A stretch of DNA of 64,000 nt from assembly GCA_000004695.1 (NCBI GenBank), contig CM000152.2, positions 4,832,001 through 4,896,000 on the forward strand. Direction: 5' to 3'. The translations under genes and the position numbers were made by a program. This document shows positions 13,968-49,555 of the stretch, piece by piece; the first letter of the stretch is position 1, and every line of letters begins with the position of its first letter. The notes beneath the pieces are model-generated. The model was not told the DNA's origin. It ran no database searches and was given only the letters and a program-made list of their open reading frames with translations. Origin of the DNA: Dictyostelium discoideum (Eukaryota).

Positions 13968-16415
13968 TTAAAGAGCATGTTTTCCAACTTTAAAAGCTAC
14001 ACATGTTACATGATCCATTTTACCTTTATATTCTTTGAGATTATCAGGTAAAGGTTTATTAGGGAAATTAACCATGAATTCTCTTGAAGATTTAGTGGTT
14101 TCAACACAATGTTCAACCAATTTTTCAGTGATAAATTTGGCGGTGATAGGATCTTGTTCTTGATCATGAGTTCTAAGTTTTTTCTTGAGGAATTCTTGAG
14201 TATATTTGGTTTTAGCTTCCAAAGCCTTATCAGGTTCCATATCGGACCAATTTTCATAGTTCAATTGAAGATCTCTTGGTGTCCAACCAACGGTTTGAGG
14301 ATCTAAATTATCATGGACACCATCAGAGATCAATACGATGATATCATTTTCATTACAAGGTAAAAAGTGGAGACAAAGATTTCTGAGATCAGGTTGGCCA
14401 TTGGCAACGTATGGACCAAGACGACCACCTGGATCTTTTGGATCATCAACATTACCACGATTGTTCTTTGTGATATCTGTGAATTTCTTTGAGCTGGCAG
14501 AATAGTGGAAAGCTTTACAATCACCAACTGAAGCACAAATGAAACCCCATTTCGATGGTGGAGCATTGATATCCTTTACAATGGAACCAGCATTGTTTAC
14601 TGAAGCCGATAGGCCATTGGAAACGATACCACTACCGGTGAGATTGGCAAAGTTTGCTCCTATAACTGGTTTATTTACACCTGAACGACCCAATTGTGAT
14701 GATGGTTCTGGTTTTGATGCTTCGCTTTGTTGAAGTTCAACCAATACACCACCCAATAATGTTGTGGTACCAGCTTCCCAAATATCGGATTTACCTTCGA
14801 CAATACGATTATGTGCATAATTGAAGGCCGATAAAATGTGATTACCAGCGTCTTGAACGGTTTGAATCTCTGAAGACAATGCTTTGCTCATGAAATCAAC
14901 AAAACTAATGGATGCTCTGGTTGCAGCTTCGGCTGGACGGGAACCCCAATTACAACCATCAGCAACGGCTGCAATGATACGACTTGCTTGAATTTGTACA
15001 CAGAAATGATCGCAAATTGGGTCACCCTCACGTTTTGGATGATTTGGTAAGTGAGGATAGGTTGAAATTGTACGAGCATAGAAATTATTATTAAAACAAC
15101 TATGAAATGTTGACTCTAATGCATCGGCTGATGGACCATTGATTGTACTGGTGAAAGTATCATTCTTTGGATCCACTATTAAAAATTTAGGGAATTGATT
15201 TTGTACACTACCAATTACAACTGGTGCTAAATCAATACCACGTAATGATCCCATATTTGATTGACTTTTTACACGATCCAATGAAATTGAATTATGATCT
15301 TCAAATCCATTTGGATAAATTGTTGTTGGTTTTTCATAACTTATTACATTTGAAATATTATTATTATTATTATTATTTGAATTATTATTATTACTTGAAT
15401 TTGTATTACCACTTTTAACAGAATTTAATTGATGTTGTTTCTTTTCAATCATTTTTTTTAATTGTAAAGTTTGATTATGTACTAATGCTATTTGTTCATT
15501 TAATGATTTTTCTAATTTTTCGGATTGTAAAATTAATTCATCAATTTCATTTTGTTCTTGCTGTAATTTTGCTGTACTTAAACCACCGCCACCACCTCCA
15601 CCACCGCCACCTCCACCACCACTAAGATCTATATCACTGCTTGCTATAGGATTTAAGTAGGCATTATCAGATTCATCACATGGTAATGACTGAAAATCTT
15701 GTAACATATTTAAAACTTGATAGTATTGTGGATTTGGTTTTGAATTTGACATAATTAGATTCAAACAAACATCTAATAACTTTAAACCCAAATGAGTGTT
15801 TGGTGGTGTTGATTGTTTCTTTTCACGTAATAAACTTTGATATACTTTGGTTGCTTTTTCAATTGATTTATGTAATTTATAAATTGGATTTGCTTGTGAC
15901 ATATCCTTATTGGATGCTTCGGATTTCAATCGATTCCATGATTGTTCGTCATTGGATGCTGCTAATGCTGCTGCGGTTTGTGCTGTAGTTGGTTTAATGA
16001 AAAACAATTGTGAATTATCTCCAAATGGTAAACCAATGATCTCCAATACACCTCTATCCCACATTAATTGGCCATATTCTATTGCTTTGGCTCTACTAAT
16101 ATTTAATATACGTGATATCCAATCTATAATTTCATCACTTTGTAAATATTCAATACCTTTTGGTTTAGTTGATAATATACCTAAATTTAAATCTCTAATT
16201 TTATTTTCAATTATTCTTGCCTTTAATTTTTTATTTATTTATTATATTTATTTGTTTTTAATGAGCAAAAAAAATAAAAAAATAAAAAAAAAAAATAAAT
16301 AAAAAAAAAAAAATAAAGGGTAAAAAAAAAATTAATTTATTAGAATATTTAAAAATTTCTATTATTATTAATATAAAATAATGCCTACCTCGTCTTCTTT
16401 TAACAGTGAATCCAT
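13968..16415 (-). CDS. DEP domain + PP2C-like (PPM) phosphatase domain protein; exons 16389..16415, 13968..16220
   Basis: ORF 13968..16064 stays open upstream of its first Met up to an acceptor (TTAAAG) at 16221. A 168-nt AT-rich intron (16221..16388, donor GTAGGC) joins a 9-codon first exon, MDSLLKEDE. The N-terminal ...IIENKIRDLNLGILSTKPKGIEYLQSDEIIDWISRILNISRAKAIEYGQLMWDRGVLEII fits the DEP pattern. The C-terminal half has PPM-like motifs (AAVADGCNWGSRP..., GTTTLLGGVL, IVLISDGVHDNLDP). Confidence 0.7.
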
Positions 16416-17869: not shown

Positions 17870-19210
17870 ATGTCATTCATCAGAGGTGTTTGTAAATTAA
17901 GTAAAAATATCCGTTATACCGGATCAATAAACTCAATTTTAAATAAAGGTGTTATTGGTTCCACCATTAATACCAAAACCACTACCATCACCACTACCAC
18001 TACCAACACCACCAATAATACATTAGCATACAGAAATTATTGTAGTTCAACTACCACCACCACCACTACCAACACCACTCAAAATGAAATAAAAGAAGTA
18101 CCATATCAATTTTTAACATTAACAAATGAACAATGGGAATTAGCATTAGGTAAAGAAGTAAATAAAAACACAAAAGATTTCTTTGACTTGACTAAAAGTA
18201 GAACTACATTATTAAGAAAACCAACATTTGAAACCATTCAATGGTTATCAAAAATGAAAGAACAACGTTTTTATAAAGAATCACCACAAGATTATTGTAG
18301 GGTTTTAGATGGTGTAGCTGGTTCAGGTAAAAGTATATCATTAGCTCAAGTTGCATTTTGGGCACAACAACAAGATTGGTTGGTCGTTTATATTCCAAAT
18401 GCTAGTAGTTTTATCAACCGTGGTGCTTTAACTCACTTTAATATCAACCCATTATTATTTGCTCAAAATAATTTATGCTTTAATTTCATTAAACAATTTG
18501 TTGAAGTTAATCATGCAAAATTAAGAGAAATTAAATTAAAAACTAAATTTAAGGTAAATTTATTATAAAATTATTATAAATTATTATTATTATTCAATAA
18601 AAATACTAATTTTAACATCCTCCCCACCACCACCACCACCACCACCACTACCACCACCCCCCCCCCCCCCTCCATCATATAATTTTTTTTTTTATTTTTT
18701 TTTAGATTGAATCAACTGGATGGGAATCATCACCAAATAAAACATTATTTGACTTATTATCATCAACAAAGTATGATTCATCATCAGAAATTTTCTATCA
18801 TTTTAAGAGAGAATTAAATACAATTCATGAATTCCCAGTATTGGTTGCAATTGATGGTTTTAATCACTTTTATAGACCATCAGATTATGGTGATATGTAT
18901 GATTCAGCTTCAAATCTTGGTACTTTACCAACTGATAGATTAATGGCCTCTTCATTATTTAAAAATATTACATCACATCAAATCTCAAATGGTGTTGTCC
19001 TTGCTGCAACAACTAATGTCATTCCAAAACGTGAAATGTTTGAAGTTATCCCAGAAGAGAGTGTTTTAAATGTACCAATTTTTACAATTTATGAATTTAA
19101 ATTATTCATTAATTATTTGGTTGAAACTAAATATCTTGAAAAATGTATGTAAAATTTTAACAACAAAATTAATTTAAAAATGTATATATATATAAAAATG
19201 TTATTTTCCT

Positions 19211-19880: not shown

Positions 19881-20576
19881 TGTTGTGATGGTAATAAGAA
19901 TACTTGAAATATATATATAGATTTATTTTTTTAATTTTTTTTTTTGTAAAAACAAAAACAAAAAAAAAATAAAAAAAAATAAAAAAAAAAAAATAAAAAA
20001 AAAAAAAATAAAAAAAAAAAAAATAAAAACTTTGGGCTAGATATTTTCAAATTCTTAAAATAATCAGTTTAATTTTAAGTAGATTTTTTCTTCAAAAGAA
20101 AAGTGACTTTTAATCTGCCTGTAACCAAAAAAAAAAAAACCACAATAAAAAAAATTTTAATAAAGAAATAATATAAAAAATAAAAAAAAAATAATATAAA
20201 AATAAAAAAAATATTATTTTTTAATAAAAAAATAAAAAAAATAAAACTAAATAATAAAAATAATAATAAAAAAAGTAAAAGAAAAGTAATAAAAAAATAA
20301 TGAAAATAAAATAAAACAAAAAAAAAAAAAAAAAAAATAAAAGTAATAATAAAAAAAAGTACTTAAAATAAAAATAATAATAAAAATATTTGAAAAACAC
20401 AAAAAAATGTTGATTTGTTTAAATCCCGATTAATTTGAAATCAATTTTTATCAAATTCTCAAAAAAAAAAAAATTCTCAAAAAAAAAAAATCTTTTTTGG
20501 TCATTTTTTTTTTTTAATATTCCAACATCGTTTTTTTATTTATCAATTTAAATTTATCAATTTAAATTTATCTAAA

Positions 20577-20692
20577 ATGTTAGTTAAAGTATCAATTCAC
20601 GGACAAGAGTATGATTTAGAAGTTCAACCAACTGATAAAATTCAAGAAATCAAATCAAAAATTAATGAACTAAATGTAATTTTTAATTTTTG

Positions 20693-20735
<43 letters not shown>

Positions 20736-20753
20736 TCAACAATTCCTTATTGA

Positions 20754-20785
<32 letters not shown>

Positions 20786-20987
20786 CTCAAAAAAGGGAAC
20801 ACCTGTTGAACAAATCCATCCATATATTGCAGGACATGCAATGAAAGATGGTACTACAATTTCAGATTATCCTCAAATTGTAGAAGGATCAAAAATTCAA
20901 GTTAGAGTCATACTCAAATCACAATCTGACAATTCTGAAAAATCAGAAAAATCAGGAAAATCTGAAAAGGATTGTATTTTAATGTAA
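20577..20987 (+). CDS. ubiquitin-like (beta-grasp) protein with C-terminal CaaX box CILM; exons 20577..20675, 20796..20987
   Basis: MLVKVSIHGQEYDLEVQPTDKIQEIKSKINELN|GTPVEQIHPYIAGHAMKDGTTISDYPQIVEGSKIQVRVILKSQSDNSEKSEKSGKSEKDCILM. Donor GTAATT at 20676; 120-nt intron of A and T runs; acceptor AG at 20794-95. The ubiquitin/NEDD8-like core (MLVKV..., pattern of K I..K E G.P. Q.L I..G K...D..T..DY.I) is followed by a charged linker and a Cys-aliphatic-aliphatic-Met farnesylation box. Confidence 0.6.
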
Positions 20988-21136
20988 ATCAAATAAATAG
21001 AAGAAAAAAACAAAAATAAAATAAAATAAAATAAAATAAAATAAAATAAAATAAAATAAAATAAAAATAAACTACCCCCTTTTAATTTTGGTTTTTACAA
21101 ATTATATTTTTTTTTATTTATTTAATTATTTTATAA

Positions 21137-22186
21137 TTAAAAATCTTTTGAATTTTTAATTAGAGCTCTTCTTGCTAATTCTAAAGAACCAATTGAACCA
21201 GCATGAGAAGCAAAAGGTGATTGAACAATATATTGATCAATGAAATCATTTGTTAAATATTTTGATTTGATATAACCATTTAAAATTTTGATAGTTTCAG
21301 TACGAATGATTGGATAAAGAATTGAACGATTTAAAACACCACCACCTAAAACAATGACTTGAGGTGATAATAAACAAGTGATATTTGCACATAATTGAGC
21401 TAAATAATTACCAATGATTAACCAAACTGGATGATCATCATTAATCTCTGATAGTTTATCAGCATTGATACCTAAACGTTTTGAAATTGCACCTGTGCTT
21501 ACTAAACCTTCGATACAATTACCATGGAATGGACAAGTACCTTGAAAATCTTTATCACCATCTTGAATTTTACAAAAACTATGACCACCCTCTGGATGAA
21601 CCAGACCATGAATACAACTACCATTAACTACACAACCAACACCAACACCTGTACCAACGGTAATATAAGCACATGATGTAATCTCACCCCTTTTATGAAG
21701 TCCATGAAATGTCTCTGATATTGCTGCACCATTTACATCTGTATCAAATCCTTTTGGACATTTATAATCATCAAACCAACCTAATATATTTGTTTGTCCC
21801 CAATTTGGTTTTGGTGTTGTTGTAATGTATCCATAGGTTTCACTACTCTCATCTAAATCAATTGGTCCAAATGATGCAATACCAATAGCACCAATATTAT
21901 TACCACCTTTATTCTTTACCCATTCTAATACTTTATTTTTAGTTTCCTCAACACTCGTTGTTGGTATTGATGTTCTTTCTATAACATTTGATGGTTTATT
22001 AATTGCAATTGATAAACAAATTGATGTACCTCTATTTATTTATTTGTTTATTTTTATTTTAATAATATAAATATTTATATACATATATATATATATATGT
22101 TACTAGTTTTTAATATGTATTAAAAATTTTAATTTTATTACATACCCTGCTTCCACACCAAGAAATTTTTGTTCATTTTTAATCAT
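21137..22186 (-). CDS. ROK-family sugar kinase (fructokinase/N-acetylglucosamine kinase-like); exons 22146..22186, 21137..22031
   Basis: Absent from the ORF track as one piece, but the minus strand reads MIKNEQKFLGVEAG|GTSICLSIAINKP...KNKGGNNIGAIGIASFGPIDLDESSETYGYITTTPKPNWGQTNILGWF...YITVGTGVGVGCVVNGSCIHGLVHPEGGHSFC...CPFHGNCIEGLVSTGAISKRL...VLGGGVLN...SPFASHAGSIGSLELARRAL. The DxGGT-like ATPase motif (VEAGGT), the ROK zinc motif C-x-C-G-x2-G-C-x-E (CPFHGNCIEGL) and GGG are all present. Donor GTATGT, 114-nt intron 22032..22145. GC content is noticeably higher than the surroundings. Confidence 0.75.
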
Positions 22187-29954: not shown

Positions 29955-30268
29955 TTTTTTTTTTATTTTTTTTAATAATTCTTTATTTTTTTTTTTTTTA
30001 ATTATTTGTATTTGTTTGTTTATAAAAAAAAAAATAATGAAAGTGAAAAAAAAAAAAATAAAAAAATAATATACTTGGTATATCCCAAAAATTTCTCTTT
30101 TTTTTTTATTTTTTTTATTTTTTTTATTTTATTTTTAATTTTTTAAAAAAATTAAAAAATTAAAAAAAACCTTTTAATTAATTTCAAAGCATATGAATTC
30201 GTAGTTCATTTTCTTTCAATCTTTTAATCACCACTCATTAAAAATAAATAAATAAAAAAAAAAGACAT

Positions 30269-30313
<45 letters not shown>

Positions 30314-30321
30314 GAATAATA

Positions 30322-34125
<3,804 letters not shown>

Positions 34126-48175: not shown

Positions 48176-49555
48176 TTATCTTGGTGGAAGTGCTGGTGGA
48201 GCTGCTGGTCTTTGTGGTTTTGGTGGCGGAGTCATTCCATTTGGAGGAGTTGTCATTGGTCTTGGAGCACCAGGAACAGGTGGTGGACCAGGTCTTTGTG
48301 GTTTTGGTGGTGGACCACCATTTGGTTGTGTTGGAGGAGCACCTCCGACACCATTAATTGTTGAAACTGGACGTGGTGGCATATTTGGTTGACCTGGTGG
48401 TGGTGGTCTACTCATTGGTTGAGGTGGACCTCCATTTGAACCTGGTGGTGGTGGTCTATTCATTGGTTGTGGTGGACCGCCATTTGGACCTGGTGGTGGT
48501 GGTCTATTCATAGGACCGCCATTTGGACCTGGTGGTGGTGGTCTATTCATTGGTGGTTGTGTTGGACCTCCACCTGTACCTGGGTTAGGTGGTGGTGGTC
48601 TACTGATTGGTGGTTGTGGTGGACCACCTGGATTTGGTGGTGGTGGTCTACTAATTGGTGGTTGTGGTGGACCTCCACCGTTTGGACCTGGTGGTGGTGG
48701 TCTATTCATTGGTGGTTGAGTTGGAGGTCTTTGTGGTGAATTACCAGTTGGAACTGGTGGTGGTCTATTTTGAATTTGTGAAACTGGTCTTGAAGTTGGT
48801 GGTGCTGGTGCTGTATGCTGTTGTTGTTGTGGTGGTTGTGGTGGTTGCTGTTGTTGTTGATGATGTTGTGATTTAGCTGGTAATTTAATAACTGTAGTTG
48901 GCTTGCCGCCAGTTCCTTTCATTCCACCTCTAAATTGTGGAACTGGAGGAAACTCGTCTATCGATCTAAAACTCCATCTATCGGAGCCATCATATTCTTC
49001 TGACATATTGTTGCTATTACTATTTATTATTATTACTGATTTTCTTGGTGATGTAGTTGGTATTGGTGGTATTGGTGTCGCTGGATGAGCTGGATGAGCT
49101 GGATGTGCTATTGGTTTTGAAATTGGTACTTGAGGTCTATTTAAAGTTGGTGGAGGTGGTCTTTGATATGTTTGCTCCTGTTGTTGTTGGTGGTGATAAT
49201 AATCCTGTTCCTGTTGTTGTTGATGATGGTGTATTGGTGGTGGGGGTGGTGGTGGTTGACTATAGTGTTGCGAAATAGGTCTTGATTTTGGTATAGGTGG
49301 AGGTTGATGTTGTTGTTGTGGTTGGTGATGTGGTGTTGGTGGTGGTGCTGTTCTTGAACCTGTAGGTATTGATGGTGGTTGTTTCTTTTGTGGTAAAGTT
49401 GGTACACCTGTTGGAAATATTCCTCCTCTAAATGCTGATGATGATGATGATGATTTATCTGATGCTAAAACTGGTGCACTTTTATCTACTGTTACAGCTT
49501 TATTTAATTTTTTTCCTTTTTGGATTTGTGACAATAATGAATTTCTATCTCCCAT
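48176..49555 (-). CDS. wipA: WASP-interacting protein (WIP/verprolin) homolog, proline-rich, 459 aa
   Basis: N-terminal WH2 motif MGDRNSLLSQIQKGKKLNKAVTVDKSAP (verprolin/WIP signature LLxxIxxGxxLKKxV). Extensive PPPP/PPQPP repeats, including roughly 60-nt tandem DNA repeats at 48330..48720. The C-terminal WASP-binding-like segment is DGSDRWSFRSIDEFPPVPQFRGG. The symbol is given from memory of the Dictyostelium WIPa gene and should be verified. Confidence 0.8.
   Translation of the reverse strand: MGDRNSLLSQIQKGKKLNKAVTVDKSAPVLASDKSSSSSSAFRGGIFPTGVPTLPQKKQPPSIPTGSRTAPPPTPHHQPQQQHQPPPIPKSRPISQHYSQPPPPPPPIHHHQQQQEQDYYHHQQQQEQTYQRPPPPTLNRPQVPISKPIAHPAHPAHPATPIPPIPTTSPRKSVIIINSNSNNMSEEYDGSDRWSFRSIDEFPPVPQFRGGMKGTGGKPTTVIKLPAKSQHHQQQQQPPQPPQQQQHTAPAPPTSRPVSQIQNRPPPVPTGNSPQRPPTQPPMNRPPPPGPNGGGPPQPPISRPPPPNPGGPPQPPISRPPPPNPGTGGGPTQPPMNRPPPPGPNGGPMNRPPPPGPNGGPPQPMNRPPPPGSNGGPPQPMSRPPPPGQPNMPPRPVSTINGVGGAPPTQPNGGPPPKPQRPGPPPVPGAPRPMTTPPNGMTPPPKPQRPAAPPALPPR

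Follow-up and report, generated by a model that had tools for sequence, protein, structure and literature searches.

NEDD8-like protein 1 of Dictyostelium discoideum joins a ubiquitin/NEDD8-type domain to a predicted farnesylation site and resembles MUB/UBL3 proteins in architecture

The gene for NEDD8-like protein 1 of Dictyostelium discoideum encodes a ubiquitin/NEDD8-type domain that has no Gly-Gly and ends, after a disordered tail, in the CaaX box CILM. We consider it probable that the protein is farnesylated, is restricted to its lineage and serves as a ubiquitin-type module at the cytosolic face of membranes, and that it was derived independently of the known family of such proteins, MUB/UBL3. 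Judged by its sequence, it is an analogue of MUB/UBL3 in architecture and not a member of that family, and this analogue most likely arose from ubiquitin/NEDD8 stock.

The gene lies in a stretch of D. discoideum chromosomal DNA of 64,000 nucleotides, which we refer to as the window. After splicing, the 291-nt open reading frame on the + strand yields MLVKVSIHGQEYDLEVQPTDKIQEIKSKINELNGTPVEQIHPYIAGHAMKDGTTISDYPQIVEGSKIQVRVILKSQSDNSEKSEKSGKSEKDCILM followed by a stop codon (96 aa, ending in KSEKDCILM). From end to end, this product matches the D. discoideum AX4 protein XP_640591.1 / EAL66613.1 / Q54TK0 with 100% identity. Q54TK0 is deposited as "Ubiquitin-like protein NEDD8-like protein 1", and the gene annotated for that protein is the one described here. 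A first-pass annotation of the DNA had proposed a two-exon gene with a 96-aa product, and the splice on which it relied is the one that reproduces the deposited protein. The parts of the gene are as follows.

20577..20675, + strand: exon 1, codons 1-33 (MLVKVSIHGQEYDLEVQPTDKIQEIKSKINELN), with beta1, beta2 and helix 1 of the ubiquitin fold; ATG at 20577, phase-0 donor AAT/GTAAT (exon/intron)
20676..20795, + strand: intron of 120 nt, GT..AG, 10% GC, with an A39 run and a T28 run inside
20796..20987, + strand: exon 2, TAA stop included
20796..20918, + strand: first part of exon 2, codons 34-74, remainder of the ubiquitin/NEDD8-type beta-grasp core
20919..20972, + strand: linker in exon 2, codons 75-92 (SQSDNSEKSEKSGKSEKD)
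20973..20984, + strand: CaaX box Cys93-Ile-Leu-Met, C93 being the predicted farnesylation site
20985..20987, + strand: TAA stop codon, followed by AATAAA at 20992-20997

The exons have a GC content of 29%, compared with 10% for the intron. Only one alternative in-frame pairing of GT and AG gives a long product; it uses a donor at 20622 and encodes 78 aa, losing 18 residues of the fold and leaving the C-terminus unchanged.

The surrounding DNA has a GC content of about 15-35% across the window, and its non-coding parts are rich in homopolymers. Directly upstream of the ATG, a 14-bp unit (ATTTATCAATTTAA) is repeated perfectly in tandem (2.5 copies, window positions 20538-20572), and a T14 run precedes this repeat at about 20505-20518. 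From the stop codon through the 3' flank, AAATA is repeated about 17 times (20986-21071). The upstream neighbour is a gene for a DAP3-type mitochondrial ribosomal protein (17870-18568 and 18841-19152, + strand), of which the first open reading frame (17870-18568) matched DAP3 and the second (18841-19152) is assumed to belong to it. On the other side, a convergent gene for a ROK-family sugar kinase (21140-22039, - strand) has its stop codon about 150 nt past the 3' end of the ubiquitin-like gene. No functional link of the neighbours in the window (DAP3, ROK kinase, RalGAP, DEAD-box helicase, ankyrin protein) to the ubiquitin-like gene was evident. Further away, the window contains a 1267-aa open reading frame with no Pfam match (30322-34125, + strand) in its most skewed part (30001-32000; GC skew -0.41, AT skew +0.33). 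A 698-aa frame (13968-16064, - strand) has poly-Gly and poly-Asn tracts and no Pfam match at E<=0.001; motifs in its C-terminal half (e.g. VLISDGVHDNLDP) look phosphatase-like by eye. The segment 46001-50000 shows a strong positive GC skew of 0.35-0.38, and GC rises to 0.35 near a 459-aa frame (48176-49555, - strand).

Alignments and a structural model agree that residues 1-73 form a ubiquitin/NEDD8-type beta-grasp domain, as the first-pass annotation had recognized. The Pfam ubiquitin family PF00240 matched residues 3-71 with 45.7 bits (cut-off 25.4). In phmmer comparisons with PDB sequences, residues 1-74 matched NEDD8 with about 40 bits, and each ubiquitin domain scored about 38-41 bits. 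In BLASTP, human NEDD8 was 34% identical to the protein (E 3e-14) and ubiquitin 40% identical over 53 residues. When the alignment of the D. discoideum protein with its D. firmibasis relative, described below, was compared with ubiquitin plus NEDD8 by hhalign, the match probability was 97.5% (E 6.6e-12, 74 columns). The AlphaFold2 model, for which the input consisted of two sequences only, follows a beta-beta-alpha-beta...beta succession, with strands at 2-7 and 10-15 and a helix at 22-33. Its mean pLDDT is 73, with 73-88 over most of the core and 57 for residues 71-80, and Foldseek TM-scores to target of 0.82-0.90 were obtained for ubiquitin/NEDD8. Ubiquitin and NEDD8 are the best matches of the core in both structure and sequence.

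Gly-Gly, whose absence from the C-terminus had also been pointed out, occurs nowhere in the protein, and a single-Gly processing site comparable to LRGG was likewise not found in its sequence. Without a C-terminal Gly-Gly, the protein can be neither activated by an E1 nor conjugated. A best match to a conjugatable modifier with a processed Gly-Gly had been named in advance as an argument against a MUB-type protein: the core does match ubiquitin and NEDD8, whereas its own Gly-Gly is missing. We rejected the protein as the NEDD8 ortholog; the genuine D. discoideum Nedd8 is encoded by a separate gene, DDB_G0278711, whose product is 82% identical to human NEDD8, compared with 34% for NEDD8-like protein 1. 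The identifier DDB_G0281725 was rejected for the gene studied here and belongs to Ube2M.

The features that define MUB/UBL3 were taken from Lu et al. (2016; PMC4996978) and a review (PMC10511055). Non-conjugatable, prenylated ubiquitin-fold proteins are an established class, and MUB/UBL3 proteins comprise about 120 aa with a ubiquitin fold that lacks Gly-Gly and a prenylated CaaX box (PMC4996978; PMC10511055). MUBs bind the backside of group VI/UBE2D E2 enzymes via a ubiquitin-like face, which in AtMUB3 includes Ile58, Val86, His88, Val90 and others and corresponds to the I44/H68/V70 face of ubiquitin, and a MUB-specific lap-bar loop between alpha2 and beta5 (LKLPFGKT) blocks access of the E1 (PMC4996978). 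UBL3-like proteins are widespread in eukaryotes except yeasts, and all UBL3 orthologs examined in the review have a Cys upstream of the CaaX box (PMC10511055).

NEDD8-like protein 1 shares the MUB layout, that is a ubiquitin fold without Gly-Gly and a CaaX box after an unstructured tail. The family-specific comparisons gave a different picture. MUB/UBL3 proteins, such as human UBL3 and Arabidopsis MUB1-6, make up the Pfam family PF13881 (Rad60-SLD_2), and human UBL3, for which we used a reference sequence identical to PDB 2GOW over residues 2-117, matched this family with 121.4 bits. The D. discoideum and D. firmibasis proteins both had no match to PF13881 even at E<=10, so that of the two families for which an HMM search had been suggested only ubiquitin was recovered. 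BLASTP against UBL3 left the core unmatched and aligned only the low-complexity tail (E 0.48), and hhalign against UBL3 plus AtMUB3 gave a probability of 0.2%, far below the value for ubiquitin plus NEDD8.

A MAFFT alignment of six sequences points in the same direction. The Dictyostelium protein follows ubiquitin/NEDD8 in length and has no counterpart of the insertion that comes after helix 1 in UBL3 (DNWPMDW) and AtMUB3 (SDWP). The lap-bar site reads PQIVEG, whereas MUBs have K(L/T)PFG and 2-6 extra residues. At the position equivalent to I44 of ubiquitin and I58 of AtMUB3, D. discoideum has Y43 and D. firmibasis S43; R70 takes the place of V70, Q or H that of H68, and H or Y that of K48. 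The residues with which MUBs contact the E2 backside are conserved in neither Dictyostelium protein, and the Cys upstream of the CaaX box is absent in both species, each protein having a single Cys. Because the protein failed every MUB family-specific test, we do not assign it to MUB/UBL3, nor do we extend that family's specific mechanism of E2 tethering to it. Of the MUB/UBL3 architecture put forward by the first-pass annotation, the layout of fold, missing Gly-Gly and CaaX box held up and membership of the family did not; the accompanying idea of E2 tethering found no support at the contact positions. Elsewhere within the 64-kb window, neither a paralog nor a UBL3-like sequence was found.

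Between the core and the CaaX box lies a spacer of 19 residues (K74-D92), which bears out the earlier description of a Ser/Lys/Glu-rich linker. It is of the (SEK)n type and net-neutral, with 5 K and 5 D/E, and is partly encoded by a 9-bp tandem repeat (3.6 copies, 20937-20968). In the AlphaFold2 model the spacer is disordered: residues 77-90 and 92-96 have a pLDDT below 50. C93 is the single Cys of the protein; a polybasic stretch and a second Cys for palmitoylation are both absent. With Cys at -4, the aliphatic residues Ile and Leu at a1 and a2, Met as X and a disordered, hydrophilic C-terminus, the protein has the features of a CaaX substrate. According to established CaaX rules, Met, Ser, Gln or Ala as X directs a protein to farnesyltransferase, and aliphatic Ile/Leu at a1/a2 favour prenylation. 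As a motif, the CILM end predicted to be farnesylated is therefore as the first-pass annotation had it, and it is kept in D. firmibasis. From the local amino-acid composition, we calculated that about 2e-4 to 6e-4 of proteins would end in C-[VILM]-[VILM]-X by chance. Such an ending being rare by composition, a ubiquitin-fold protein is unlikely to carry it by accident.

Word-index searches, for which the protein and the two-species alignment served as queries, detected a single relative, that of D. firmibasis. KAK5580405.1 has 93 aa, is 74-76% identical to the D. discoideum protein and shares its last nine residues, KSEKDCILM, without change. Its gene (L001:6001-6390) contains a 108-nt intron after codon 33, in phase 0 and at the same codon position. 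The Cys codon has changed synonymously (TGT in D. discoideum, TGC in D. firmibasis), and the spacers differ by one repeat-sized indel of 3 aa. Nei-Gojobori estimates for this pair were dN 0.138, dS 0.63 and dN/dS 0.22 for the whole gene, dN 0.144, dS 0.65 and dN/dS 0.22 for the core (1-74), and dN 0.116, dS 0.54 and dN/dS 0.21 for the tail (75-96), the last comprising about 9 substitutions. These values indicate that the gene is under purifying selection, core and tail alike. That all four CaaX residues are kept at a dN of about 0.14 between close species is by itself a weak indication of constraint.

When the D. firmibasis locus with 6 kb on each side of the gene (L001:1-12390 = CM069766.1:1216364-1228753) was compared with the window (1-64000) by tblastn and tblastx, only the gene itself matched and no shared neighbours were found. 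Orthology is for this reason assigned from sequence and intron position alone, and either the D. firmibasis region has been rearranged or the gene has moved. A scan of JGI metagenomes with the patterns EKDCILM and HG[QR]EYDLE found no relative. In an exhaustive HMMER search of 1.84 billion representatives, the D. firmibasis protein was the only single-domain match above 105 bits among the best 150. Almost all of these 150 are multi-repeat polyubiquitin-like proteins, which crowd the top because domain scores sum, and any distant single-domain orthologs, for instance from other dictyostelids, would be hidden behind them. Within this scope, the gene appears to be confined to species close to D. 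discoideum.

Four of the 149 multi-ubiquitin-repeat proteins among these best matches have CaaX-like ends themselves, compared with a rough chance expectation of about 0.5. They are P0069 (...REKCVIS), P0081 (...SSCVIL), P0112 (...RMKCIVS) and P0116 (...ARRKKCIVM). P0081, which ends in CVIL, is a 'polyubiquitin-like isoform X2' of the lamprey Lampetra fluviatilis, and the other three come from Logan/ENA assemblies; P0116 has a polybasic stretch together with its CaaX box, an arrangement known from K-Ras. Ubiquitin-type proteins with CaaX ends may hence be more widespread outside the MUB family.

The mechanism that we propose begins with the farnesylation of Cys93, for which protein farnesyltransferase would be the enzyme because X is Met. 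Cross-geranylgeranylation would also be possible, GGTase-I being able to cross-prenylate the CVIM end of K-Ras4B. The ILM tripeptide would then be cleaved off by an Rce1-type protease and the new C-terminus methylated by Icmt, leaving the ubiquitin-like domain on a flexible leash of ~19 residues at the cytosolic face of membranes. Its role would be that of a membrane-resident, non-covalent ubiquitin-like interaction module. On balance we think that Cys93 is likely to be farnesylated, ILM removed, the C-terminus methylated and the domain tethered in this way. According to the two-signal rule known from Ras, stable anchoring in the plasma membrane needs a second signal, either a polybasic stretch or a palmitoylated Cys. 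As NEDD8-like protein 1 has neither, endomembrane localization or weak, reversible binding is to be expected rather than stable anchoring in the plasma membrane. Farnesylation of a CaaX protein has a precedent inside this host: the Legionella effector AnkB, which ends in a CaaX box, requires it for its function within D. discoideum (PMC2916131).

What the tethered domain would bind can be narrowed down to some extent. With the Ile44 patch and the lap-bar loop missing, the partner is probably not the backside of a UBE2D-type E2, and since the Ile44 patch is degenerate, generic ubiquitin mimicry seems as unlikely as UBE2D-backside binding. The canonical interaction patch even differs between the two species (Y43 and S43). 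A lineage-specific partner appears more plausible. Going further, we offer as a speculation, and one that we would not expect to hold in full, that a ubiquitin/NEDD8-type domain was converted recently within the group-4 Dictyostelium species, independently of MUB/UBL3, into a farnesylated mark displayed permanently on endomembranes, which recruits or decoys some protein that binds ubiquitin/NEDD8 and is not UBE2D, with the traffic of endosomes, autophagy or pathogen vacuoles as possible settings.

Several other explanations have to be weighed against a farnesylated, independently derived module. The protein could be a soluble, lineage-specific and decaying duplicate of ubiquitin/NEDD8 that cannot be conjugated and whose CaaX box is incidental and unused. 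Its occurrence in two close species only, an identity of 74-76% between them, which is low for a relative of ubiquitin and points to fast evolution, the degenerate Ile44 patch, the absence of microsynteny and our failure to find functional literature on it would all fit. We nevertheless find this doubtful: the CaaX ending is rare by chance, the last nine residues are identical in the two species while the Cys codon has changed synonymously, a hydrophilic, disordered tail is what an accessible CaaX substrate would have, and decay would be at odds with the dN/dS of about 0.2 that core and tail both show. A flawed gene model, with a wrong splice or a non-coding region mistaken for a gene and the CILM end as an artefact, deserves hardly any credence. 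The exons are short and embedded in very AT-rich DNA, and the model was built from sequence, not transcripts, yet its product is identical to the deposited protein and forms a complete ubiquitin fold. The independent D. firmibasis model shares position and phase of the intron and keeps the reading frame to the same stop at a dN/dS of 0.22, and the exons stand out from the intron in GC content.

It is also very improbable that the protein is a strongly diverged but true MUB/UBL3 ortholog that is prenylated, resides at the plasma membrane and binds the backside of UBE2D/group VI enzymes to block their charging by the E1. The common layout of ubiquitin fold without Gly-Gly, flexible tail and CaaX box and the reported spread of UBL3-like proteins through eukaryotes except yeasts (PMC10511055) would be in line with such an origin. 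Against it, PF13881 gave nothing at E<=10 where UBL3 itself reached 121 bits, the core was unmatched in BLASTP, and hhalign placed the protein with ubiquitin/NEDD8 (97.5%) and not with MUBs (0.2%); in addition, the insertion after helix 1, the PFG loop of the lap-bar and the upstream Cys are missing, and Y/S43 and R70 occupy the contact positions. Nor do we believe that the protein acts as a covalent modifier, be it through a disulfide of its C-terminal Cys, as in UBL3, or through an unusual processing step; this, too, is highly unlikely. UBL3 is reported to modify proteins via cysteines beside its CaaX box (PMC6158211; PMC10511055). In NEDD8-like protein 1, however, C93 is the sole Cys, so that prenylation and disulfide formation would be mutually exclusive, the upstream Cys of all reviewed UBL3 orthologs (PMC10511055) has no counterpart, and neither Gly-Gly nor a single Gly provides a site comparable to LRGG.

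Prenylated ubiquitin-fold proteins have so far been represented by one family, MUB/UBL3, whose function as an E2 regulator or as a disulfide-linked sorting tag is debated. The D. discoideum gene itself was already annotated; neither a lipidation of its product nor any experiment on it is described by the names given in the source databases or in the searchable literature, in which we also found no reports on membrane binding or expression of the protein. New in concept is a predicted prenyl anchor on a core of the ubiquitin/NEDD8 type instead of the MUB type. The relation between NEDD8-like protein 1 and MUB/UBL3 is a probable case of convergence. If our reading is true, a second, unrelated protein of this layout would make lipid anchoring of the ubiquitin fold a recurrent solution that evolved repeatedly, and the multi-ubiquitin-repeat proteins with CaaX ends would join as further cases. 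A haploid amoeba amenable to genetics would then be at hand for studying the action of a membrane-tethered ubiquitin-like domain that does not have the E2-blocking loop of MUBs. The stakes are modest, as the gene had been annotated before and appears limited to near relatives of D. discoideum. The convergence would be neat and easy to test and unsurprising in principle.

Compared with known systems, NEDD8-like protein 1 has the domain length and the order of secondary structure elements of ubiquitin and NEDD8 (PF00240), and its N-terminus, MLVKV, resembles MLIKV of NEDD8. It departs from them towards the end of the core, which reads ...VRVILK as opposed to ...LVLRLRGG in ubiquitin, with LKSQ and a 22-residue extension in place of the LRGG of both modifiers. 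The L8/I44/V70 patch of ubiquitin is represented by I/V7, Y/S43 and R70 in the Dictyostelium proteins, and K48 by H/Y. With MUB/UBL3 it has in common a small, single ubiquitin-fold domain that lacks Gly-Gly and is followed by about 20 unstructured residues and a CaaX box, and the expected outcome would be the same, namely a lipid-anchored ubiquitin fold unable to conjugate. Its core, in contrast, has 73 residues and with that the length of ubiquitin, and CILM predicts a farnesyl group, whereas a preference for geranylgeranyl is assumed for the CVIL and CTIL ends of UBL3 and AtMUB3 (PMC10511055). As it lacks a second membrane signal, enrichment at the plasma membrane is not predicted, which sets it apart from plant MUBs.

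Farnesylated proteins with Met as X are the closest parallel to the C-terminus. K-Ras4B (CVIM), N-Ras (CVVM) and lamin B (CAIM) are all farnesylated, and like NEDD8-like protein 1 they carry Cys, two aliphatic residues and Met after a flexible, hydrophilic segment, so that farnesyltransferase, then Rce1 and then Icmt would be the expected order of processing. NEDD8-like protein 1 differs in having no polybasic stretch or palmitoylatable Cys as a second signal, and its cargo is a ubiquitin fold, whereas theirs is a GTPase or a lamin. The autophagy protein ATG8/LC3, finally, is a ubiquitin-fold protein that is joined to phosphatidylethanolamine through its C-terminal Gly, and in this form it resembles the arrangement predicted here in that a lipid-attached ubiquitin fold is shown on the cytosolic face of a membrane as a docking module. 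ATG8 is attached reversibly, via an exposed C-terminal Gly and by a cascade of E1-, E2- and E3-like enzymes, whereas NEDD8-like protein 1 would receive an isoprenoid in thioether linkage from the CaaX pathway and would need no conjugation machinery for it.
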